64,000 bases of DNA from Squalus acanthias (lineage: Eukaryota). The stretch spans positions 127,286,001-127,350,000 of the forward strand of contig CM059434.1 in assembly GCA_030390025.1 (NCBI GenBank). The letters are read 5' to 3'. The notes under the pieces were generated by a model. The model made no database searches. It was given only the letters and a program-made list of their open reading frames with translations, and had not been told where the DNA came from. The position numbers and the translations under genes are program-made. Below, one piece after another: positions 4,490 through 61,120 of this stretch (position 1 is its first letter; each line of letters starts with the position of its first letter).

Positions 4490-6082
4490 TGGTATTTTAT
4501 GTCTGGAGGTAGGAGTTTGGCTCAGACTAGCTGGTATGGTCGGGGTGTAGTCCTCTCGAATCTTGTCCAGCCAGTCATTTTTAATGCATGAGCCCAGACA
4601 GTGAATCTTGGCAGACTATTAGATGGTGCAGCGCATCACAGATGAGCACAATTTTCACATCTATGTAGATGCGTTTTCTGGCAGGGGTCAGCATTAGCAG
4701 CAGGGGCCCTGGCTAAACTCTTTCTCCCCACCCTTCCCAAGGCCAGGAACACAGGCAATTAACGGTGCTTCAATTTGACATCAGATAACGACGTGCATAT
4801 TGATTCTGGAACTTTCCTGGTATGTCTGCTCATTGGAACATTTTACATGGAAAAGCTTAAGAAAGGAGGTTGCTCACACATTTGAGTGAGAATGGTTTAG
4901 GAGCTTTGTAGTGCATATTTATAAATTAAATACATAGCTTTTTCCACCTTTTGGTGCAGACTTGGGGCTGAGTAGGTGGCATTTGAGGGAAACTGTGCTT
5001 TAGTTCAGCCTTGGTTAGTGACCTGATTTTTAAAATTTTTTTTAATGCCATCTTAATAGAAAAGCAGTGTTCACACTCCTGCATACCTCAGGCAATTCAA
5101 CACAACCTAATGAATTTAAACCAAGGATTTGAAGGATTATTCTGATTACCCTCTGTGTTTGTGTAACTCCTCATTAAAGTACTGTTGGAGCGGATTTTGA
5201 GGGGAAAAAAAGCCTATTCTTTGAAGTTGACGAGTGAAAGCACATTGCTGCATTTTGTATTGTAGGATAATTATTTCAAAGCTTGGCTGCCTTCTGTCCC
5301 TGTGGTGCTAGTTTTTAGTGTACAAAAGTGCTTTTAGGATCCTTTGATCAAGACCTTCAGGGAGGACAATTGGCTTTGCCAACTTGAAATCCTGGATCAT
5401 CTTGCACCGCACGGGATGGGTAGAGGAGCGCTTAATTTCCAGTGTTTTGTTGGCACCGTTCACAAACAATTAAATTGCTTGACATTAGTCAAAGGCGGTG
5501 GCTACTGAAGCTTGTGAGTTTTTTAAAGAATTGCTAACATGGGCATTATTTCTCTCCCCTCCCTTCCTGTCCTGAAGGTGCTGACTCTTTGGTGGGTTAT
5601 GGTTCTTTAGCTGTCGGCAGCCCTCTGGTATCTTGCCTAATCCAGTAGCGGAGCCAGTGGGGAGTCGGCTGATTGCTCTGGCTGATTGCTATTCTCGCCC
5701 CCCCCGCCCCCCCCCTCCCGCAACTAACCTAGGGGTGCCGAGAGCTGAGCTCGTGTGTTATGCCTCAATTGCAGGACTGACGAGATCAACTGATTTGGCA
5801 CAAACTGGGGTTTGAGTTTGATGATCTGTTTGGCTCAGTACCACAATGGCTGGTACATTTACCCACGAAAATGATCGGGGGGTGGGGGAAAGCTGCAGCT
5901 TCTCAATTGAACTGGTAATGTTTATAATGCTTGAGCACCACCATCAGGCCTAAATCAGCCAAAAACTGTGTTTCAGATGTTGGCAAAAAAAATTTTGTGG
6001 GACAAAAAGTGCCTGTGATCAGTCATTTATAGTTCCTACACAAATTAGAATTTTAAAAAATGTACAAAAGGTAAGATTAATG

Positions 6083-6297
6083 AAAGAACTTGCATTTATA
6101 CAACGCTTTTCACATCCTGAGGCTGTCACAAAGCGCTTTACAATTAATGAAGTACTTTTGAAGCGTAGTCACTGTTATAATGTAGGAAACGTGGCAGCCA
6201 ATCTGCACATAGCACAATCCCACAAGTAGTAACAGGATCATGACCAGATAATCTGTTTGTGATGTTGGTTAAGCAATAATTGTTAGCCAGGGCACTT
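6083..6297 (-). mobile_element. Deu-domain SINE 3' part
   Basis: aaagaacttgcatttatac...gtagtcactgttataatgtaggaaac matches the family in reverse. Confidence 0.7.
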
Positions 6298-7185: not shown

Positions 7186-7400
7186 AGTCCTGGCCAATAT
7201 TTATCCCTCAACCAACATTACTAAAAACAGATTATCTGGCCAATATCACATTGCTGTTTGTGGGACCTTACTGTGCACAAATTGGCTGCTGCGTTTCCAA
7301 CGTTACTACAGTGACTGCACTTCACAGCCAATTAAGTATTTTTGAAGCGCTTTGGGATGAATTGAGGTTCTGAAAGGCACTGTATAAATGCAAATCTTTC
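7186..7400 (+). mobile_element. Deu-domain SINE 3' part
   Basis: gtcctggccaatatttatccctcaacc...tataaatgcaaatctttc. Confidence 0.72.
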
Positions 7401-8777
7401 ATGCAGTTCCACAACAGAAACTTTCCACGGTTTAGCACTAAAATTGACTGTCTCTAACGCCATAAAGATGGCTGGTGTGTGAAATGGAAAAAATTGACGC
7501 TGGTACAGTACAATTTTGAAGTTGGTATTGAAATGAGACGAGAGGAGCTTTACCCTGCAGCTGTCTACTATTGCCTGACCTGTGTGTGGTTAATGCTGAG
7601 TGCCAAAAGTAAAAATATATTCCTTCGCACCAAAATCCCTTACTTTGAATACAAAAGACCAACGGGTATAAATTTAGCTAAGTGTTGCTGCAAGAATTTC
7701 AGTCAAGTGCAAGTGTAACATTGTCATGTTATTAATTTGAAACGTGGAAAAACACCCGAGAGTGCAGTTATAGACATCGTTCACTTAAATTTGGTTACAT
7801 CTGATGAGCAAATTGAGCTATATAGTATGAACAGTAAGTAACTACACGTAGTTACGGGTCTGTTCCTGACTAGGGGCCGTTTGAGTAAATTTAAAGCATT
7901 GCAATGTTAAAGAAAGGCTCCCTCCTTACACCCAGTAACTTATTAGTACCAGTACTGGGTGGAAGTATCCATTTTTCACTGGTGCTATTGCTTTTTCACA
8001 TTTTGTAGATATAAATAGAGGATATATGACTTGCCCCAGCAATTTGTAAGCTAATTCCACATGCCAACTCAATGCACAAGACACGTGCATCATTAATGCA
8101 TCAGATCATGGGCATGTGTAGAAGTCTCAGATCCTATTCAGTTCAGATTAAGCGCAATAATCTTTTTTTTCTAATTGGTTAAGTTGCAGTTCACTGTCTC
8201 TTTTTTTCCTGTTTAGCTTTTAAAGTTGATTTGATCCTGGCATCGTGTGTGGAAATAATTCCTAACTGCTAGTCGTTCTACGGCTCCTTCAACTCTAAAG
8301 ACACGTTTGCCACATAGGTTGAATGTTGATATAAACATTTTACTCACGTCGCCACACATGCTGAGCAGACTTAGCCCACTATCCTAGGACTTGCTATTAT
8401 TAGCCTCTTCTGAAGTAATGGAATTAATTGCTCCTTTTTTAAGAAAAGCAAATACATTTGCATCATCTATGCAGTATATTTTTCAGAGCAAAACGTGGAA
8501 TATTTTTGGAAATTAGTTTTTATTGTTTTAATATATTATGCACAAGCTTTAAAATTCCTCTCTGAAAGTGGTACTTTGGCTCGATAGTTTCTGGGAACAC
8601 CACTTGCTACGCTGGCACGTGAAAATGTTGATGTTGCGTATGGGCAGTGCCGCACGTGGATCCTTACCCGTGGTTTCATTTATGGCGAAGAAATTGTTGG
8701 CCTGTAGTTTTATCTGCTGCCACCTAAGTCAGAATTGGACCATCAAATCCACAATGTAGATGTTGTTTGGGCCCTAA

Positions 8778-9082
8778 TCTAGACTGGCACTTCACTGGAG
8801 TACTGAGGGTGGTGCTGTCTTTCAGATGAGTCGTTAAACCGAGGCCCCGTCTGCCCCCCTCCGGCAGATCTTCCGGCAATATTTAAAGAGTAGCTGGGGG
8901 CATTCTCTTGGTGTCCTGGGCAATATTTATCCTGCCTCAGCCCATCTGCTGCTGAAACCCTCATCCATGCTTTTGCTGCCTCCAGACACGACTATTCCAT
9001 TGCACTCCTGACCTGCCTCCCATCTTCCACCCTCCGTAGCCTTTAGCTCATCCAAAACTCTGCTGCCCGAATCCTAACTCAC
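8778..9082 (+). mobile_element. Deu SINE fragment joined to an L2 LINE fragment
   Basis: SINE core to ~8933, then ETLIHAF..SR.DYS..LL..LP...LIQNSAAR.LT (L2 ORF2 C-terminal part). Confidence 0.65.
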
Positions 9083-9914: not shown

Positions 9915-10205
9915 CCCGACAATGCAGCACTTCACTGGATCTCTAGGCTACATTATGTGAAGTCCTTGAGTGGGCTTGATATCAGAACCCTTTGAGGCGA
10001 GATTGCTGCCAACACAGCTAAGCTAACACTTAAAGAAAAAAAGAAAGACTTGCATTTCTATAGCGCTTTTCACGACCACCAGACGTCCCAAAGCGCTTTA
10101 CAGCCGATGAAGTACTTTTGGCGTGTAGTCACTGTTGTAATGTAGGAAACGCAGCAGCCAATTTGCGCACAGCAAGCTCCCACAAACAGCAATGTGATAA
10201 TGACC
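9915..10205 (-). mobile_element. Two adjacent Deu SINE fragments (decayed head, younger tail)
   Basis: 9915-10030 resembles 580-690; 10040-10205 is a clean reverse tail copy. Confidence 0.65.
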
Positions 10206-10831
10206 GGAATTTTTTTCAACTGTAATGAATCCAAAAATTTGTATAATTGAGAGATTGTGCGCAGTTTCAGAAAATGTTAACTTTACCCTAATGTGTGTGT
10301 GTGTGCAAAAATATTGCCCAATTTTTTTTTTTACATTAACTCGATTTGCAACTTTCTTCATGCCGCATCCTCACAGATTATAGCGTGGTTTGATAGCTTC
10401 TGGGGGAACTGCTTGCTTGGCACGCACATGGTGTTGCAGATAACTGGTGCCATACGTGGTCTTCTGGTCCTGTGTTGTATAAAGCCAAAGGATCTGCACC
10501 TTTTGTGATCATTTTTACCAGTATAAGGTTCTTTGTCCTAAACTTGCGGAGAATGAGAGCCTTGATGTAAGGAGCAAAGTATTCCCATTTCTTCAAAAGG
10601 AGTAGATGAGATTAGTCACTGGTCAGCATCAAACGTTGGCTGATATCCTCGGCTTCAAACTGCTAACAAGGTGGCTGTCTGACTTTTTCAACCTACATTT
10701 TTATTACAAGATATTGAACATTACTAATGGATTGCGAAGTTGAAATAAGCATACTGGTTAAAAATTTAGCAACTAACTGACCAGGTATAAACAATTATTT
10801 AATTTTAAAATATTCAAAACATTGAACAACG

Positions 10832-11255
10832 GGGGTATGGTAGCATGATGTTTGTTAACTGGACTAGTAATCCAGAGGCTAGACTAATGATCTGGAGACA
10901 TGAGTTCAAATCCCACCACAGCAGCTGGGGAATTTAAATTCGGTTCATTAAATAAATCTAGAATAAAAAGCTAGTATCAAACCACTCCGCTAGTGTTCAG
11001 TTCCATTCGCAGCGCCTCAGATAATGAAGTAGTCCGTTCCCGCACGCAGCAAGACCTGGACAGCATTCAGGCTTGGGCTGATGTGTGACAAGTAAAATTT
11101 GGGCCACACAAGTGCCAGGCAATGACCATCTCCAACAAGAGAGAGTCTAACCACCTCCCCTCGATAGTCAGCCTACCATTGCCTAATGCCCCAAGGTGGT
11201 TAGACTCTTGCTGGAGATGGTCATTGCCTGGCAGTTGTGTGGCACGAATGTTACT
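10832..11255 (+). mobile_element. tRNA-derived SINE head followed by a LINE fragment with a fold-back inversion
   Basis: B-box-like gagttcaaatccc at ~10902; 10994-11156 matches LINE 3369-3532; 11194-11255 is an inverted copy of 11091-11156. Confidence 0.72.
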
Positions 11256-17217: not shown

Positions 17218-17433
<216 letters not shown>

Positions 17434-30154: not shown

Positions 30155-31165
30155 CAATATGCACTTATACAATGCCTTTAAAGTTAAAAAAATGTTCCAG
30201 CCAAAGAGCAAGATATTCTGAAGGGTGGCTAAAAGCTTGGTTGAAGATGTAGGCTTTATGAAGTGTCTTTAGAAAAGAGGGAGGTTGATAGTTGGAGGGG
30301 TTTAGGAAGAGAATTTGAGTGGGGGCTGAAGGCACAGCTGCCAATAGTGGGATGAAGGTACACAAGAGGCCAGAGTCAGAAGAACAGATTTCAGGGAGCC
30401 TTGTAGCAGTGGAGGAGCTTGCAGAGAAAGGGAAGGGTGGGGCCATGGAGGGATTTTAACACAAGGATGAAAATGTTTACATTTGACTCTTTGGGAAGCA
30501 GGCAGCCAATTGTAAGTCAGCAAAGATAGAGGTGATGGACAAGTCGGAATTGGTGCTGGATACTACACGGGTAGAGTTTTGGGCAAGCTGGAGTTTACAG
30601 GGAGTGGAGGTTTGGAGGCTGGCTGGGAGAGCATTGGAATAATAGTCTGGAGGTGAGAAAAGTATGAATGAGGTTTTCAGTATGAGATGGGGCAGAGGTC
30701 GGCCATTTTATGGAAGTAGGTGATCTCTTTGACAGAGAGGATATGCAGTCAGAAATTCCACTCATGGTCAAATAGGACACAGAGGTTGTGAAGAGCGAGA
30801 TGGTGGTAGGGAAATAGAGTTGGTGGTGAAGGCACAGAAGTTGTGTCTGGGGAACTAAGGAAGATTGTTTTGGTCTTCCCAATGTTTATCTGGGGGATAA
30901 AAAATGCACCTCAGACAAGTAGTCTGACAGCGGTGAAGGTGGTGGAGAAGTGGAGCTTGACGTCCTCAACGTACGTGGACACTGACCCTGTGTTTGTGGA
31001 TTATGTTGCCAAGATGCAGCATGTAGATGAGGAAGGGGGCTAAGGATGGATCTTGGACAGACTTCCTCGGTGATGACCTGCGTAAGGAGACGCCGTTGCT
31101 TGAGATGCTACAGTTACACTCGGATAGGCGAGAGTGGAACCAAGCAAGGGCCATTCTACTGAGCG
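30155..31165 (-). mobile_element. L2 LINE fragment, continuing at 33321-33560
   Basis: Minus-strand ALAWFHS.LS, FLIYML.LG.II.KH.V, ENLIHTFLTSRL; upstream part ESFQSGF...LLIFLDLS at 33321-33504. Confidence 0.75.
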
Positions 31166-31423
31166 GTTTCCTCTCCCCCGCTATTCCTCCTTCATATCAA
31201 ATCATCTCCAATTAGCATCGAGCCCTATCTACTCTTTTGGTGATTACTCCAGTTTACGTTCATTAACTTCCTTCAGAGCCCACTACCTTCATTCCCCTCA
31301 GTACAACGGTTGGAACGTGGTAACTTGCTCTCCACGTATTGATCAATGCTAAGCCAGTTACAGTATTCAAAAAAATGAGAAGTCGCACAACACCAGGTTA
31401 TAGTCCAACAGATTTATTTAAAA

Positions 31424-31461
31424 TTACAAGCTTTCGGAGCTGTCGCCCCTTCGTCAGGCAA
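31424..31461 (-). ncRNA. Minimal hammerhead ribozyme motif, left-arm copy
   Basis: Exact reverse complement of 33130-33167. Confidence 0.82.
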
Positions 31462-31699
31462 AGGTACAGTGAGTGAATCTACAACATTACACCGTATATA
31501 AACACAGACACTGCAGAGATACAATCTTTCAGGGAAGGTGTCCTTACATCAAAGACATACCAGAGCACAGCCAAGACAATGAGATGTGTCACAGGGGGTC
31601 CAACGTGTCAAATCCTGCTGTCTGCAGTTGTTTTTTTTGGGGGTTTGCTTTTTTTAAAGTTTTTTTTTAAAAACTGGAAAGACAGACAACGATGTCGAG

Positions 31700-32186
31700 T
31701 CACGTTCTGTAGCGTGACATGAACCCGATATCCCTATTGAAGCCATCCTCATGGGTGCGGAACTTGGCTATCAGTTTCTGCTCGATGATTTTGCGTTGTC
31801 GTGTGTCTCGAAGGCCGCCTTGGAGAACGCTAACCCGCAGATCCGAGGCTGAATGTCCTTGACTGCTGAAGTGTTCCCCGACTGGGAGGTAGCAATCCTG
31901 CCTGGCGATTGTTGCGCGGTGTCCGTTCATACGTTGTCTCAGTGTCTGCATGGTCTCGCCGATGTACCATGCTCTGGGGCATCCTTTCCTGCAACGTATC
32001 AGGTAGACAACGTTGGCCGAGTCACATGAGTATGTACCATGTACCTGGTGGGTAGTGTCCTCACGTGTGATGACGGTATCTGTGTTCATGATCTGGCATG
32101 TCTTGCAGAGGTTGCCGTGGCAGGGTTGTGTGGTGTCGTGGTCGCTGTTCTCCTGACAGCTGGGTAATTTGCTGCGAACGATGGTA
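31700..32186 (-). pseudogene. Penelope GIY-YIG endonuclease remnant (left arm)
   Basis: ORF 31700..32089 (-) nearly identical to the right-arm protein (QDCY/QYCC, V/A, F/L differences). Confidence 0.9.
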
Positions 32187-32399
32187 CTTTGAGGTTAGGC
32201 GGCTGCTTGAAGGCGAGTAGTGGAGGCGTGGGGATGGCCTTAGCGAGGTGTTCGTCGTCATCGATGACATGTTGAAGGCTGCGAAGAAAGGCGCCATGTT
32301 CTTCGCAGCCTTCAACATGTCATCGATGACGACGAACACCTTGCTAAGGCCATCCCCACGCCTCCACTACTCGCCTTCAAGCAGCCGCCTAACCTCAAG

Positions 32400-32886
32400 T
32401 ACCATCGTTCGCAGCAAATTACCCAGCTGTCAGGAGAACAGCGACCACGACACCACACAACCCTGCCACGGCAACCTCTGCAAGACATGCCAGATCATGA
32501 ACACAGATACCGTCATCACACGTGAGGACACTACCCACCAGGTACATGGTACATACTCATGTGACTCGGCCAACGTTGTCTACCTGATACGTTGCAGGAA
32601 AGGATGCCCCAGAGCATGGTACATCGGCGAGACCATGCAGACACTGAGACAACGTATGAACGGACACCGCGCAACAATCGCCAGGCAGTATTGTTGCCTC
32701 CCAGTCGGGGAACACTTCAGCAGTCAAGGACATTCAGCCTCGGATCTGCGGGTTAGCGCTCTCCAAGGCGGCCTTCGAGACACACGACAACGCAAAATCA
32801 TCGAACAGAAACTGATAGCCAAGTTCCGCACCCATGAGGATGGCCTCAATAGGGATATCGGGTTCATGTCACGCTACAGAACGTGA
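32400..32886 (+). pseudogene. Penelope Cys-rich linker plus GIY-YIG endonuclease remnant (right arm)
   Basis: PCHGNLCKTC...SC linker, NVVYLIRC...WYIGET...RQRMNGHR...EHF...E...GLN motifs; no RT domain; frameshifted relative to the upstream PPLLAFKQPPNLK frame. Confidence 0.9.
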
Positions 32887-33129
32887 CTCGACATCGTTGT
32901 CTGTCTTTCCAGTTTTTTTAAAAAAAACACTTAAAAAAAAAACAAACCCCAAAAAAAACACAACTGCAGACAGCAGGATTTGACACGTTGGACCCCCTGT
33001 GACACATCTCATTGTCTTGGCTGTGCTCTGGTATGTCTTTGATGTAAGGACACCTTCCCTGAAAGATTGTATCTCTGCAGTGTCTATGTTTATATACGGT
33101 GTAATGTTGTAGATTCACTCATTGTACCT

Positions 33130-33167
33130 TTGCCTGACGAAGGGGCGACAGCTCCGAAAGCTTGTAA
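33130..33167 (+). ncRNA. Minimal type I hammerhead ribozyme motif in the Penelope terminal repeat
   Basis: UUGC-CUGACGA-A-GGGGC gaca GCUCC-GAA-AGCU-U-GUAA: stem I, core, stem II and palindromic AGCU in place of helix III. Confidence 0.82.
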
Positions 33168-33884
33168 TTTTAAATAAATCTGTTGGACTATAACCTGGTG
33201 TTGTGCGACTTCTCATTTTTGTCCACCCCAGTCCAACACCGGCATCTCCGCATCATGACCAGTATTCAAAAAGGTAGTGGATAATTACAAATACAAAAGG
33301 ATATGGGGAGACAGCGGAAATAGAAGAGAGGTCAAGAAAGATGAGGAGAGATAATGCACGGTGGTCGCAGTGTGTGGTGTCCGTGACTTTGTTTCGGGCT
33401 CTTTTGGTGCTGTGGGAGGAGTGGAAACCTGATTGGAAGGATTCAAATGGCGTTGTGGGAGGGATGGGCATGGATCCAGGAAGCGGGAACATTTTCAAGG
33501 ACATTGAAGAGGAAAAGGAGGTTTGAGATGGGGTTGAGGGTGGGTTTATTGAGGGAGTGGTGATGTATTGTTAATAGGCTTAGTGGCAATTCTTTATGGC
33601 ATAAACTGATCACTATTTGTATTGATCAGTCACTTATAACAATCAAAATCTGCTGTGCAGAGGTCTTTCGATGGGTAGTTTTATTTTCCGCCGGTGCTCA
33701 CGGGTTTCCCCAAACACTGGCCTTGCAGCGGGCAACAAACCAAATGTAAAGTTGCCAGGACTTTATAAAATCAGTGACTTGGAAAACATAAACATAGAAC
33801 TTATTAGCCATGAGAAGGCCATTGGACCCTCCTTATCTGCACTGAATGAGCAGTGCTCTCTGGAGGCAATTTTACAGTCCCATT

Positions 33885-34143
33885 TTTCCACTGTCTCCCC
33901 ATATCCTTTTGTATTTATAATTATCCACTACCTTTTTGAATACTGTAACTGGCTTAGCATTGATCAATACGTGGAGATCAAGTTACCACGTTCCAACTGT
34001 TGTACTGAGGGGAATTAAGGTAGTGGGCACTGAAGGAAGTTAATGAACGTAAACTGGAGTAATCGCCAAAAGAGTAGATAGGGCTCGATGCTAATTGGAG
34101 GAGATAATTTGATATTAAGGAGGAATAGCGGGGGAGAGGAAAC
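33885..34143. repeat. Uninterrupted donor copy of the inverted duplication; contains the empty Penelope target site
   Basis: ccactacctttttgaatactgtaactgg is the reverse complement of ccagttacagtattcaaaaaggtagtgg, with a single TSD copy. Confidence 0.9.
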
Positions 34144-38146: not shown

Positions 38147-38329
<183 letters not shown>

Positions 38330-38494: not shown

Positions 38495-39198
38495 GGGGCT
38501 GAATTTGTGGTCGGATGCTTCCCGCAAACAGATGCTTCCGACCAGCAAAACAAATCTACGAACTTACCTGATGGTCCTGGGCCTGCGTAAAGGCCCACGT
38601 ATCCCAGGGGCGCAGGCGGTTCACAAGCGCCCCTGGGATCACGTGGGCCGGCCCAACCAATCAAAGAAGCGGGCTCCCCATTCATACTTATGGAGGTTCC
38701 ATTTGTACGGAACCTCCATAAGCATGAACGGGGTTGACGGAAATAGATTTAAATTTTTTTTTTTACATATTTAAAATTAATTAAAATACAATATTTAAAA
38801 CATTTAAAACAAAAGTTTATTTTTTTGAAAAATAAATTTACATATTTTAAATGGTCGAAAAATAAACTTACCTTTATTGTACATGTGTTTTAATGTTTAA
38901 TTGAATGAAAAAAATTTACTTTTATGTTTTTTAAAACTCTTAAGCTGGTAAAGCAGGCCTTACCCCTGCTTTTACCAGGCATAAAAATTTCATGGGTATT
39001 AGCTGGGCAGAAGTTGGGCAAATAGCCCAAATCTCCGCCCGTGGAGGATCTTTTCCCGGGGATGCAGAATCTTCTGAACAGATCGCAAGTTCCGGGTTTT
39101 AGCGCTTGCGTTTCGCATTCCTAAACCCGGAACTTGCGTGGCCCCTATGGGCGCATGCGCACCTTGTACACACCCATAGGGGTCGCAAATTATGGCCC
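38495..39198. mobile_element. Non-autonomous DNA transposon (Harbinger-like MITE) with GC-rich ends and an AT-rich core
   Basis: ggggctgaatttg...caaattatggccc imperfect TIRs; several internal hairpins. Confidence 0.6.
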
Positions 39199-45882: not shown

Positions 45883-46051
45883 GTGTCCAGTGATAGCAGA
45901 TGGTACAAGACCACCTGTTATTCCTGGACTCTGTATGGTGCCCAGTGATGATAGCAGATGGTACAGGACCACCTGTTATTCCTGGACTCTGTATGGTGCC
46001 CAGTGATGATAGCAGATGGTACAGGACCACCTGTCATTCCCGGACTCTGTA
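45883..46051 (+). repeat. 58-bp minisatellite, ~2.9 copies
   Basis: atggtac recurs at 45900, 45958 and 46016. Confidence 0.93.
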
Positions 46052-48387
46052 CAGTTCAGATCTATGCAGACCACTAGACACGGTGGCCTACTCCGTGACG
46101 ATGTCCATACTTCACCGGAGAGATGTGGCTCTGCTGTTAGATGTCTACAAATCTAACCACAACAACACCACACAAGTTAGACCACAGCCTCGTGTGAATC
46201 CGGAAACGAGAGATGCTGCACCTCAACATTTTCAGTCAACTTAAGTTTGTGCAAAATACCAACGTCTCACACGCCTCTTCTCCTGCCTATGGAGCTATCA
46301 TCCAGACAGTGCCTCTGACCTTCTGCAAATAAGGAACACAGTTCCAGATAATGACAAAGTTAACTATTTCTTGCTGAGCGAGGGTTGCTGCAATGTATAT
46401 GGGATTTCTGACCTGCCCTAGCACTGTTTCTCCAAGTATTTTTATGCTTCCATTAGCCAGCAGGGTCCACATTGTGAGAACCTGTTCTTGGTTACATCTG
46501 TTTTCAAATGCACCCTTTTATGACACTTTTTTGCATATCCCCTTCCAAAGAAAATGCTTTCATATTTTTTATTACTGGCGTGTAACTCTGGAAATATCCT
46601 GAGTTTCTTCTAGTGCCAGAAGTGGAGTACTGCAGCAACAGTTTCCTTATTTTCCATTAATCTATTCTACAGCCTTTGGTTCCATCCTAGGTCCAATCAT
46701 TAAAAAAGGTGATAGAACAATGCAGCATATTGGAAGTTCCTTTACCCTGCTCTTGCCTGCTGTTAGATGCTGTATGTGACAGACATGGGTTTCATTATAT
46801 ACTGTGTTGTAAAAATATTCCTGTATCATACCTTTTCATATGAATATTTAGTGGATCTAGAATGGACTGTAGCCAGTGGTTCTGTAGGGGAAGCTTATTG
46901 TTCCTAGAGCTTGGCATGTGCAGTGTAGTTGTCTGATTTGTAGCTCCAGTAACCTTTGAACTTGAACCAAATTATGGCTCTTTGGAAGGACAATGGGTAA
47001 TTTATTTGTAGATTCCAGTCCGGTGGCCAAGAATGCAAGCTTGTTGTTAACTCTGACTGAACCATCAGAAAATGAGTTGTTGTTCTTCAGAGCGCAGGTC
47101 AGGTGTTTTGATTTGAAAATCAGTCAGGTTCTGGATAGCTCTTGCCAGGACCAGTCTGATTATGCCTCATCAGGGCATTAATTGAGGTGAGCTGTTCAAA
47201 TAGTCCTATGTTCAAAATGTATTTGGTCTGGCTTGATTTGCAAATTTATGTTCCGATGCGCCTCTGTCCGGGATAACTTTAACAAGGTGTTGACCATCTC
47301 CTTATTTTATTCAGCCCAACTTTATTTCTATGTTATGGTGATGAGGTGTAACTCAGTGGAACTAAAGCATCCCATGTTACATTCATCTAAGATTTAGTTA
47401 AAGGAATCTGAAAGAGAATTCTGAATCTTGAAATGCTTTATTATTTTGATTTCATAAACTTTGAAATATCATGATCCAAATTAGGCGCTGAGACATTCAT
47501 CTACTGATTTATCTTGCGTCTGTATAAGTTTACATATTGTAATAAATTAAATTTGTAGCATTAACCTGAAGAATATCTTTATCAGCATAGTGGTTTTTCT
47601 ACCTTGAAGCAATCGGGAAGCTAAAGTGCGGATCCTCCATGTCTTTCAGTACAAAATAACTGAGTAATTGTAATCCTGCGACATGCTAATACATTCATTC
47701 CATACGTGAGTTTTATAATTTTCTCATCATTGAGGTATAAGCCTGCCTCTGGAAACTGCCTTTTCACTTTCAGCGCGTATAAAGTGCTTTGGGGAGAAAG
47801 TGAGAATTGGAATCCTGCATATAGAACAGTTATTTTCCCTTGGGATGGAAAATCCGAGGATTAGAGGCTAGTTGCGAAGTAACCGCAATAAAGGCCTAGG
47901 AGCCAGTCTCCAGGAATATCTTTGTAATTGGTGCGTGACTTTGGGAAGGAATAACTGATGAAAAAAGAACACTTTCAAAAATCTATTTAAATGTGCCGCC
48001 TTCTACTCTTTTGCCCCTTCACCCTTTCTCAACTTTGATTCCGCAGTGTTAGATGGCAGTACATTTGTGAGAATTAATACTAGCTCAGATGCCAGTTCAC
48101 TGTATCAAATAATTGTCCTGCTTCTTTAATGATTGCCCTGCACATTTGGTAGAATGGGAAAATCTGGAATACAACTGGGTATTTCAAGAATAAGCATCAT
48201 CTGGTTTATGTGATCCCCCCCCCCCCCAACATGACCTACATGTTCTGAAGCTAAATCAAAAGGTAGGATACAAACCTATCTGGTGCAAACTTTTGAGCAA
48301 GAGGTTCAGGCTCTTTTGCAGATAATGTATGTTGCTTTTTAGAACGTTGACCCGGTGTTTTGCATTTTTACTGTGTGCATCAAATGA

Positions 48388-51469: not shown

Positions 51470-52676
51470 GTTGTAACCTGAGCAGATATAACTGGGCTTG
51501 TTGCTGCAGTTCTTCAGTTTAGTGCTGGAGAAGTTTTACAAAATGAATGTGTGGCAAGGTTATCTGTTATATTTTGATGGTGTACTCTTGCTGTTTGGCT
51601 TGTGGCATGTATCTTTTGTTTCTGTTTTACTTTTTCTCCTGGATTTGTTTGCCTTATCCAATGCTCTTATACTGCTGCTGTTAGTTTAGGGTCTGTCATT
51701 TTCGTATTAATAGGCATGGCGTTTAGCCATCCCACTCTCTGCAGCCACTCGCTAATCTATGGTGGTTATAGAGTAGCTTCACTCTCTTGCTGAAGACTTG
51801 GGGTATGCTCTGCCTCAGCTGGGTGTGTGCCGCTCCCCTCCTCTCAACCTTCCGTTCAGTAGTGGGAACCAGACAGTGGCTTACCGCTGCACTATTTAGA
51901 GTGTATTAGACCAGTGTGTGGGGTCCAGCATGGTTGTAGAGTGTGACTGGTTTGTGCAGAGATGGTGCTTTCTGTGCAAGACTGGTTTCTGTGTATTTGG
52001 AAGTAGTTATTAACGTGTCTGTCCATTTTCCCCATTTATCAACCCAGTGGTCTTTCAGCTGAGGTAGCACATTAAGACGTCATTTGCTATTTATGGTCCT
52101 TTTTGACTAATGGCAGAATTAATAGCTGTTTGAAAGGCTGCATTTACAGTAGGGAAATAGAACACATTTGAAGTTGCGTCTCAGTTAAATGACTGATGTA
52201 CTGGGAGATATTAGCTCTGGAATTCACAATGTGTCTTTAGACTAGGTTCAGATTGTTAGAGTAATTTTGGAGTGAATTAACTACCACTATGCTGCATTTC
52301 TGTGTGAGGTTTTGCTTTCTGATTGACCCCTCTGCTACCCCATGCACCATTTTCTTGGGGCAGGGCGGATGACTGAACAGCTTGCATTCAAAATTCTGTC
52401 AGTGCCACTCTATAATCAACCGTCAGGAGATGCGCAGTGGTGATCTGGGATGACTCGTCCACAGATTTCCTTTCTTCCATCCCACTCCCTTGAAGCAGCC
52501 AGCCATCGCTTGGTGCCTCCTTTCCCTGACTACCTCCTACAGATTGGGAACTTGCCACATGTGTGCCGGCACTCGGGGCTGCTGCTGGGATTTTGTGTTG
52601 ATGTCCATTCCTTGAATCAGCCCTCCATCCCTCCATTTACTGTGACCTACTAATGTCTGTGCTTTCTTTTTTGTTG

Positions 52677-52873
52677 AGTCGCACAACACCAGGTTATAGT
52701 CCAACAGCTTTATTTGAAATCACAAGCTTTCGGAGCGGCTGCTCCTTCGTCAGGTGAATGAGCAGCAGCTCTGAAAGCTTGTGATTTCAAATAAAGCTGT
52801 TGGACTATAACCTGGTGTTGTGCGACTTCTCACTTTTGTCCACCCCAGTCCAACACCGGCATCTCCGCATCAT
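52677..52873. mobile_element. Miniature inverted Penelope terminal-repeat insertion with TSD
   Basis: Left arm from 52677 pairs with 52760-52827; same tail (gtccaccccagtccaacaccggcatctccgcatcat) as 33221-33256; tcttttttgttg at 52665-52676 and 52874-52885. Confidence 0.9.
52720..52757 (-). ncRNA. Minimal hammerhead ribozyme motif in the mini-Penelope
   Basis: Minus strand reads UCAC-CUGACGA-A-GGAGC agcc GCUCC-GAA-AGCU-U-GUGA. Confidence 0.82.
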
Positions 52874-53115
52874 TCTTTTTTGTTGCATTTGTACTGCCTT
52901 TAAAAGGATTTCTTGTTCCCCCCCCCCCCCCCTCCTTTTTAAGAAGCAGGGTATGGAGCTGTGGTTGAGCATTGTTACAGAATGGAATTAAGGCTAGTTA
53001 GCCTAATAGGATTCCATTTATTATGAGCTTGATATTATACATTTTTACTACTGTCATTTATTCCAGTTGCTTGACTTTATGCATTTGTAACTAATTTGTT
53101 ACTTTTATTCTTAAG

Positions 53116-60944: not shown

Positions 60945-61120
60945 GCCTTGGCCAACATTTCTCCCTGATCATTCATTCTGTCATTGTTTATGGGACCTTG
61001 CTATGTGCAAATTGGCTGTTGTGTTTGTCTGTGTAACATTAACTGCACTTCCAAAAGTAATTGATTGTAAAGCACTTTGGGACGTCCTGATCAGGTACTA
61101 TATAAGTGTTTTGCTTTCTT
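60945..61120 (+). mobile_element. Deu SINE 3' part
   Basis: tgggaccttgctatgtgcaaattggctg...aaagcactttgggacgtcctga. Confidence 0.62.

Follow-up and report, generated by a model that had tools for sequence, protein, structure and literature searches.

The window analysed here is a stretch of 64,000 nucleotides (nt) of Squalus acanthias DNA (NCBI GenBank assembly GCA_030390025.1, contig CM059434.1, positions 127,286,001 to 127,350,000 of the forward strand), and all coordinates below count from its first letter. It contains exons of the muskelin gene (MKLN1) and, in one intron of this gene, a large palindrome. We conclude that the palindrome is almost certainly an inactive copy of a shark Penelope-like element (PLE), a retrotransposon, which was truncated at its 5' end and inserted in the head-to-head form known for this family. 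An earlier note on this DNA had already described a nearly spacerless palindrome of about 1.85 kb in a muskelin intron, and had ascribed it to one Penelope insertion and a single fold-back synthesis event. The muskelin exons were picked from a list of open reading frames (ORFs), and two of them were confirmed against PDB. The upstream exon (17290-17419, plus strand) lies in ORF 17218-17433, which corresponds to muskelin residues 480-528 in PDB 8ttq (E 1.3e-31), and has its GT end at 17419. The downstream exon (38181-38328, plus strand) lies in ORF 38147-38329, which corresponds to residues 527-578 (E 2.1e-31), and has its AG end at 38181. Because the two ORFs match adjoining stretches of muskelin and carry proper splice ends, they are consecutive exons and the intron between them, about 20.8 kb in length, holds the element. 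Thus, the proposed location is borne out.

The existence of the palindrome as reported was confirmed. When the window was compared with itself by blastn, the strongest non-trivial match was that of 31371-33220 to its own reverse complement (97.6% over 1858 columns). The left arm (31371-32288, minus strand) is 918 nt long and the right arm (32299-33220, plus strand) is 922 nt long; each is a 5'-truncated copy of the element. The left arm consists of the ORF end, an A-rich tract and the pseudo-long terminal repeat (pLTR), and the right arm runs in the sense direction of muskelin. Global alignment of the left arm with the reverse complement of the right arm gave 905 matches, 12 mismatches and 6 gap columns; the longest stretch of perfect identity is 290 nt. 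Nine of the mismatches lie outside an A/T-rich homopolymer tract (near 31630-31670) and three lie inside it, in keeping with the earlier count of about nine substitutions plus small or homopolymer indels. Eight of the nine outside substitutions are transitions and one is a transversion; three arm substitutions are bunched within 8 nt. The apex needs a closer description. The sequence GGCGCC, which had been named as the axis, does occupy 32290-32295, where two non-adjacent bases are missing from the left arm. In contrast, both DNA and RNA folding close the stem on AGAA/TTCT and leave a 10-nt loop at 32289-32298 that contains GGCGCC. The description as nearly spacerless is therefore fair, but a loop-free axis at GGCGCC is just one possible reading of the apex. 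The last 7 nt of the apex are the sense sequence of the element (Arg-His of its ORF), that is, a property of the right arm; the Arg-His is supported by the motif KLRH in seven of the ten shark homologue proteins listed.

The arms were identified through their coding remnants. The right-arm ORF remnant (32292-32886, plus strand) comprises the linker between reverse transcriptase (RT) and endonuclease (EN) plus a GIY-YIG endonuclease, and is frameshifted near 32398-32400. The left-arm remnant (31700-32288, minus strand) is frameshifted at the same codon (near 32188). Pfam GIY-YIG was detected in the right arm (E 5.2e-4) with 20.7 bits, below the cut-off of 22.6, and the left-arm remnant alone matched no Pfam family. 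When 162 residues of the right arm were compared with 167 candidates, restricted to longer proteins, 37 matched. The best homologues are all from sharks (Heptranchias 89%, Scyliorhinus 86%, Mustelus 82%). The Heptranchias protein P0001 is matched with 89% identity over 98% of the query in its C-terminal quarter; its endonuclease is C-terminal, and inspection by eye of the linker just ahead of the matched region revealed no Cys cluster. The Penelope/Poseidon clade is told apart from Neptune, Nematis and Naiad by RT phylogeny, a C-terminal endonuclease and the lack of an extra Zn-finger motif in this linker. P0001 and another homologue, P0010, carry RVT_1, and the truncation point of the present copy lies downstream of the RT. 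Both arms start directly after the homologue motif FPGAEKL. The shared frameshift points to one source template, which was probably already defective before insertion and moved in trans. Arm-specific amino-acid changes are present on both arms (one on the left, two on the right and one unpolarised).

A minimal type-I hammerhead motif was found in the pLTR of the right arm (33130-33167, plus strand) and again in the left arm (31424-31461, minus strand). It consists of a 4-bp stem I, the core, a bulged A, a 5-bp stem II and a palindromic mini helix III. It should be mentioned that this assignment comes from our own descriptor scan. Scanning of both strands of the window gave three motifs, all in these Penelope elements, and none of 60 shuffled sequences reached three. 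Rfam gave no matches in the whole window at gathering thresholds; in 32880-33280 it gave just two matches, both attributable to chance. Stems I and II are seen in the predicted folds of the present element and of a second, miniature copy described below, with weak z-scores (-0.5 and -1.9). In published PLE hammerheads, helix I is short and a bulged base precedes helix II, which has 7-8 bp in the Schistosoma motifs (PMC4209133); the shark motif shares the short helix I and the bulge but has a helix II of 5 bp. When the hammerheads at 33130-33167 and 52720-52757 (the miniature copy) were compared, the changes in stems I and II preserved pairing (one double change and two A-U/G-U changes), which is consistent with a conserved fold.

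Next to the right arm lies a one-sided tail (33221-33259, plus strand), in which 27 of 39 nt are A or C by manual count. The distance between the end of the tail and the point where hammerhead stem II begins is 118 nt. The earlier note had placed an extension on the right arm only, and this holds; its length to the target-site duplication (TSD) is 39 nt and not 36 nt, the latter being the part common to the miniature copy. Two features of this region were observed in addition. Positions 33190-33231, spanning pLTR and tail, contain a branch-point-like word, a pyrimidine tract and CAG, with a pyrimidine fraction (0.84) equal to that of true muskelin acceptors; this is possibly the 3' end of an intron in the 5' untranslated region of the element itself. 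An ATG at 33255-33257, at the end of the tail, is possibly the ORF start.

The insertion is bounded by a left TSD (31361-31373, plus strand) of 10-13 bp, the final A's of which overlap the T-run of the element, and by an identical 13-mer on the right (33260-33272, plus strand). At the left junction, the A-run and T-run provide microhomology of up to 3 nt. The 13-mer occurs on the plus strand at 31361 and 33260 only, and on the minus strand once (33933-33945). The reason for this third occurrence is an inverted duplicate: the older block hit by the insertion (31166-33320, that is, 31166-31373 plus 33260-33320, plus strand) corresponds to 33885-34143 on the minus strand, where it is uninterrupted (247 matches, 9 mismatches and 3 gap columns). 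Because this copy is uninterrupted and possesses a single 13-mer, it shows the site prior to insertion and verifies the TSD independently. Thus, the proposed duplication cagtattcaa(aaa) around the whole unit was confirmed. Together with the GIY-YIG remnant, the shark homologues, the hammerhead and the tail, the single TSD pair also bears out the claim of one Penelope-like insertion.

The duplicated flank bears on a further idea, that two Penelope copies were inserted independently, side by side and in opposite orientations, or that one copy was later duplicated locally in inverted form to give the second arm. The flank shows that a local inverted duplication did happen here, the duplicate lying 0.6 kb downstream of the palindrome. 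However, the flank duplicate has diverged more than the arms (9/269 versus 9/875 sites, Fisher P 0.02, 875 being a manual count of arm sites outside the homopolymer tract). Therefore, the element was inserted later and the duplication of the flank is a separate, older event. Moreover, one TSD pair surrounds both arms, the apex contains neither host DNA nor a TSD, the truncation points lie within 10 nt of each other and the frameshift is common to the arms. We consider both versions of this idea very unlikely.

The flank duplication itself was also observed as a local inverted duplication of about 260 bp (31166-31373 plus 33260-33320 versus 33885-34143, 96% identical). Judging from the sequence, it appears to stand in the place of part of an older repeat, and it resembles a templated insertion made during break repair. 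The surrounding DNA (30500-31165 plus 33321-33570) was considered as a decayed antisense LINE RT on the basis of its motifs, a reading for which searches of Pfam and PDB and pairwise BLASTP gave no confirmation. Within it, 30573-30691 matches another repeat copy at 8941-9061 (72%), the sole match found for that DNA.

A second, diverged member of this Penelope family, a miniature sister copy of the element, is present at 52664-52885 (plus strand) in a later muskelin intron. It consists of a 13-bp TSD (52664-52676 and 52873-52885), two 72-nt arms (52677-52748 and 52756-52827), a 7-nt apex and a tail that extends to 52872. It carries a single intact hammerhead on the minus strand (52720-52757). 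Comparison with the large copy gave 103/108 and 71/78 matches, and its tail is that of the large copy, shorter by 3-4 nt. The apex of the miniature consists of tail-less-arm sequence and stretches into the core of the hammerhead, a part that is missing from the tailed arm; this apex matches the Scyliorhinus copy P0014. Because a second copy shows the same layout, this layout is a habit of the family and not a single accident.

These results also bear on whether the palindrome is an artefact of assembly or library preparation, such as a fold-back read or an amplification chimera. Arm differences do concentrate in the homopolymer tract, and structures of this type are known to trouble assemblies (PMC8557442). 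However, the flanks are not mirrored, the independent empty-site copy confirms the TSD, and the tail is one-sided and typical of the family. In addition, the substitutions are strongly biased to transitions (eight of nine; P 0.001 against equal error rates), and the layout recurs in a second, diverged copy. The empty-site TSD, the asymmetric ends and the transition bias make a fold-back artefact unlikely, and taking all points together we give this explanation hardly any credence. Two other candidates were rejected from the structure. A foldback DNA transposon or miniature inverted-repeat transposable element should have symmetric terminal inverted repeats that end at the TSD and does not fit: here the ends show an asymmetry of 39 nt, and a hammerhead and the end of a retroelement ORF are present in the arms. 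An inversion of the L1 twin-priming type does not fit either, since both arms hold the same segment and not a non-overlapping 5' part.

How did the inverted copy arise? We tentatively favour the idea that each of the two target nicks primed a complementary DNA (cDNA), one at each of the two RT start sites of the element, and that the two convergent cDNAs were joined by microhomology. In this pathway, the element protein would work in trans on an RNA that was already frameshifted and would nick both target strands about 13 bp apart, and each nicked 3' end would prime reverse transcription. The outer start site would give the tailed arm, and the inner site, 39-42 nt further in, would give the tail-less arm. 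The two cDNAs would halt no more than about 10 nt apart, probably by copying the same RNA to the same end. They would then be joined head-to-head via a short self-complementary overlap, and fill-in would yield the palindrome and the TSD; afterwards, the arms would have drifted about 1% apart. The anatomy, the TSD, the family, the host intron and the shared frameshift were established directly, while priming, joining and all effects at the RNA level are inferred. Biochemical support comes from a PLE protein of the anole, which in vitro cleaves and extends both target strands and uses two internal RNA starts, the interval between which is the genomic tail (PMC11167929). By our own arithmetic, the outer ends lie at +118 (large copy) and +114/115 (miniature) from hammerhead stem II, and the inner ends at +76-79 (large copy) and +69 (miniature). 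In the anole element, one start region lies 111-118 nt from hammerhead stem II (PMC11167929).

The polarity of the apex is opposite in the two copies: the large copy has tailed-arm sequence in its loop and the miniature has tail-less-arm sequence. Because priming of two cDNAs allows either arm to be the longer one, it fits both polarities. Two cDNAs started at two sites would explain both copies, the tail and the TSD.

The competing snap-back idea can be stated in a form in which the apex is moved away from GGCGCC. A tail-primed cDNA stalls, its 3' end folds on AGAA/TTCT with a 10-nt loop and it copies itself; copying stops at the inner site and the product is joined to the left flank by A/T microhomology. 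This idea accounts for the coincident truncation and the shared frameshift without extra assumptions. The loop of the large copy is tailed-arm sequence and the hairpin with the 10-nt loop is the predicted fold. Furthermore, snap-back duplication in yeast that is deficient in repair is driven by inverted repeats of 5-9 bp that are separated by spacers of 3-12 nt (PMC7999016). In contrast, the loop polarity of the miniature is the opposite one, and tail-primed snap-back leaves a tailed-arm loop only. The common inner stop of the copied arm in both copies is left unexplained. The 4-bp priming stem was the preferred fold at none of the nine truncated cDNA end positions tested. Overall, we regard this form of snap-back as the main rival of two-ended priming, possible but less likely. 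The version of the earlier note, with snap-back exactly at GGCGCC and zero loop, is sterically implausible and found no support: an intramolecular hairpin requires a loop of 4-6 unpaired central bases (PMC7999016), the fold shows a 10-nt loop and the miniature apex comes from the tail-less arm.

According to a third, published idea, a hairpin is formed before integration when the element primes itself on a template that is antisense or a hairpin; resolution and integration by the endonuclease then leave a one-sided tail (PMC3846280, PMC8557442). It was proposed from abundant junction palindromes (PMC3846280) and for the tail (PMC8557442), and it allows either loop polarity. However, the anole protein in vitro uses sense RNA and its internal starts coincide with genomic tail ends (PMC11167929), and the authors of the 2013 model kept a sense-template alternative open (PMC3846280). 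We judge this route to be unlikely.

Several points weigh against two-ended priming and keep our preference tentative. The evidence on mechanism comes from two loci only. The text of PMC11167929 does not assign the 111-118 nt to either start site, and it concerns a different species. An extra assumption is needed for two cDNAs that stop together about 920 nt deep, and snap-back does without it; the shared frameshift is equally compatible with snap-back. The natural apex sequence was inferred from protein homologues only. Palindromes undergo central revision, and a later asymmetric central deletion could mimic the loop polarity of the miniature. Finally, there are 45-46 CpGs per arm, yet only one of the nine substitutions lies at a CpG site (P 0.01-0.30 over the range of CpG rates assumed); with so few CpG substitutions, simple decay after insertion is not fully established.

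The CpG observed/expected ratio is 0.84 in the arms and 0.41 in the window, and some arm differences may date from the insertion itself. With the epaulette-shark mutation rate of 7e-10 per generation (PMC10587355), the age would be 2.8-37 million generations, a range that is too wide and assumption-laden to use.

At the RNA level, the central 991 nt folded with -1073 kcal/mol (z -90), and none of 20 shuffled sequences was as stable. Therefore, the suggestion that the MKLN1 pre-mRNA carries about 0.9 kb of nearly perfect double-stranded RNA is supported as a prediction, and an intronic duplex of this length is expected to form whenever muskelin is transcribed. In the pre-mRNA, four of the twelve arm mismatches become G-U pairs. 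By analogy with other systems, the duplex is likely edited by ADAR, and most likely it is discarded with the intron. We looked for an ADAR signature in the arm differences, but their polarity could not be assigned. Production of small RNAs from the duplex is possible; somatic production of endogenous small interfering RNAs (siRNAs) is weak in vertebrates. The duplex would also keep the sense hammerhead paired and presumably inactive.

The sense arm also contains a putative cryptic exon of 154 nt (32598-32751, plus strand), which was taken from annotated shark isoforms. Among ten shark host-gene models that include pieces of the element, three start their match at the acceptor 32597/32598. Two of the ten end exactly at the donor 32751/32752 and two more lose similarity at that codon. 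It should be noted that these models are automatic annotations from other species. The splice sites at 32598-32751 meet the ends of element pieces in shark isoforms of XRCC5, PPP1R12A, IQCK and USP8, and we regard this as putative recurrent exonisation of this Penelope family in sharks. In muskelin, use of the exon would put a premature stop into the protein. Pairing with the left arm, which is transcribed first, could mask the exon. If such masking is true, introns would tolerate mirror-image insertions better than single sense copies. The combined proposal, that Penelope inverted copies arise by two-ended target-primed reverse transcription at two RNA start sites and that the palindrome masks its own cryptic splice sites, is speculative, and we doubt that it holds in full. 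In a literature search that was mostly blind to subscription journals, two-ended priming for Penelope inverted copies was not found in print.

The window contains further repeats. One short interspersed repeat is present in at least six copies in both orientations (263-440, 1433-1653, 6079-6295, 7187-7402, 10031-10208 and 60965-61108), which are 70-79% alike; these copies are predicted to give further, weaker intronic duplexes. Inverted arms of 51 nt, 90% complementary and 63 nt apart, were observed at 11091-11255 in a LINE-like fragment, and this may be a 5'-inverted LINE insertion. A 58-nt imperfect palindrome (38676-38733, 83%) lies just 3' of a muskelin exon, and an intronic tandem array of about three 58-nt units is present at 45891-46064. 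Six further stretches are putative muskelin exons. A motif search between 50091 and 55882, where another small exon of this gene should lie, gave no match.

The anatomy, the mechanism and the functional idea put forward earlier all have published precedent. In rotifers, inverted copies that meet head-to-head at a palindrome were described, with a tail of 31 bp and TSDs of 8-10 bp, together with a proposal of self-priming (PMC3846280), and an inverted truncated copy plus a 30-40-bp tail are regarded as general PLE features (PMC8557442, PMC8969392). Thus, the claim that Penelope-like elements make inverted partial copies with a short 3' extension is borne out by PMC3846280 and PMC8557442. The endonuclease-containing (EN+) PLEs (Adineta Pen2a/Pen2; Craig et al. 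2021 Fig. 2; PMC3846280, PMC8557442) share with the shark copy the head-to-head truncated copy, the junction palindrome, the one-sided 30-40-nt tail and the GIY-YIG at the ORF end; their TSD is 8-10 bp. In the rotifer examples shown, the inverted part is mostly the pLTR of about 200 bp beside a longer copy (PMC3846280, PMC8557442). In contrast, both arms of the shark copy are truncated near the same point, which gives a palindrome with 0.9-kb arms and no unique middle. The large copy is a long, well preserved instance of a known Penelope layout and a useful test case for mechanism. Our searches for shark Penelope palindromes, for Penelope with twin priming and for PLE palindromes with editing found no paper, a weak negative because subscription literature was thinly covered. 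Sharks appear to carry many young copies of Penelope elements.

In LINE-1 twin priming, both nicks prime cDNA, microhomology joins the products and a non-overlapping 5' part of the RNA is inverted. The mechanism proposed here is similar in priming and joining, but the shark arms duplicate the same segment instead. The PAc/Poseidon element of Anolis carolinensis shares with the shark element the pLTR hammerhead, the AC-rich tail, a tail end about 114-118 nt from stem II and an AT-rich target (PMC11167929). However, the PAc work was performed in vitro, with a main text that does not discuss inverted copies and uses the word only for an inverted-dT block, and the shark copy is RT-less and cannot mobilise itself. 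The origin of the tandem and inverted PLE structures is called unresolved in the literature (PMC8557442, PMC11167929). Apex polarity offers a simple, countable genomic test of snap-back versus two-ended priming. If our preferred reading is true, the two copies in the window, with the same two end points, opposite apex polarity and one preserved empty site, are genomic evidence for two-ended priming.

For the RNA duplex, the closest systems are in Drosophila and zebrafish. In transgenic Drosophila melanogaster, siRNAs map exactly to inverted regions of rearranged Penelope (PMC3681739). Long inverted repeats and potential double-stranded RNA are common to both cases; at the shark locus, transcription would come from a vertebrate host intron. 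In zebrafish, palindromic repeats such as ANGEL are heavily A-to-I edited (PMC8096273). Self-complementary transposon transcripts are shared here as well, but the zebrafish ones are DNA-transposon and SINE repeats, and editing in the shark is proposed by analogy. Finally, the 0.9-kb, 98%-paired duplex with its 10-nt loop belongs to a class of repeats that in model systems cause fork stalling and chromosome breakage (PMC7999016). Its persistence in an intron of a conserved gene makes it a usable case for studying ADAR load and palindrome tolerance in cartilaginous fish.

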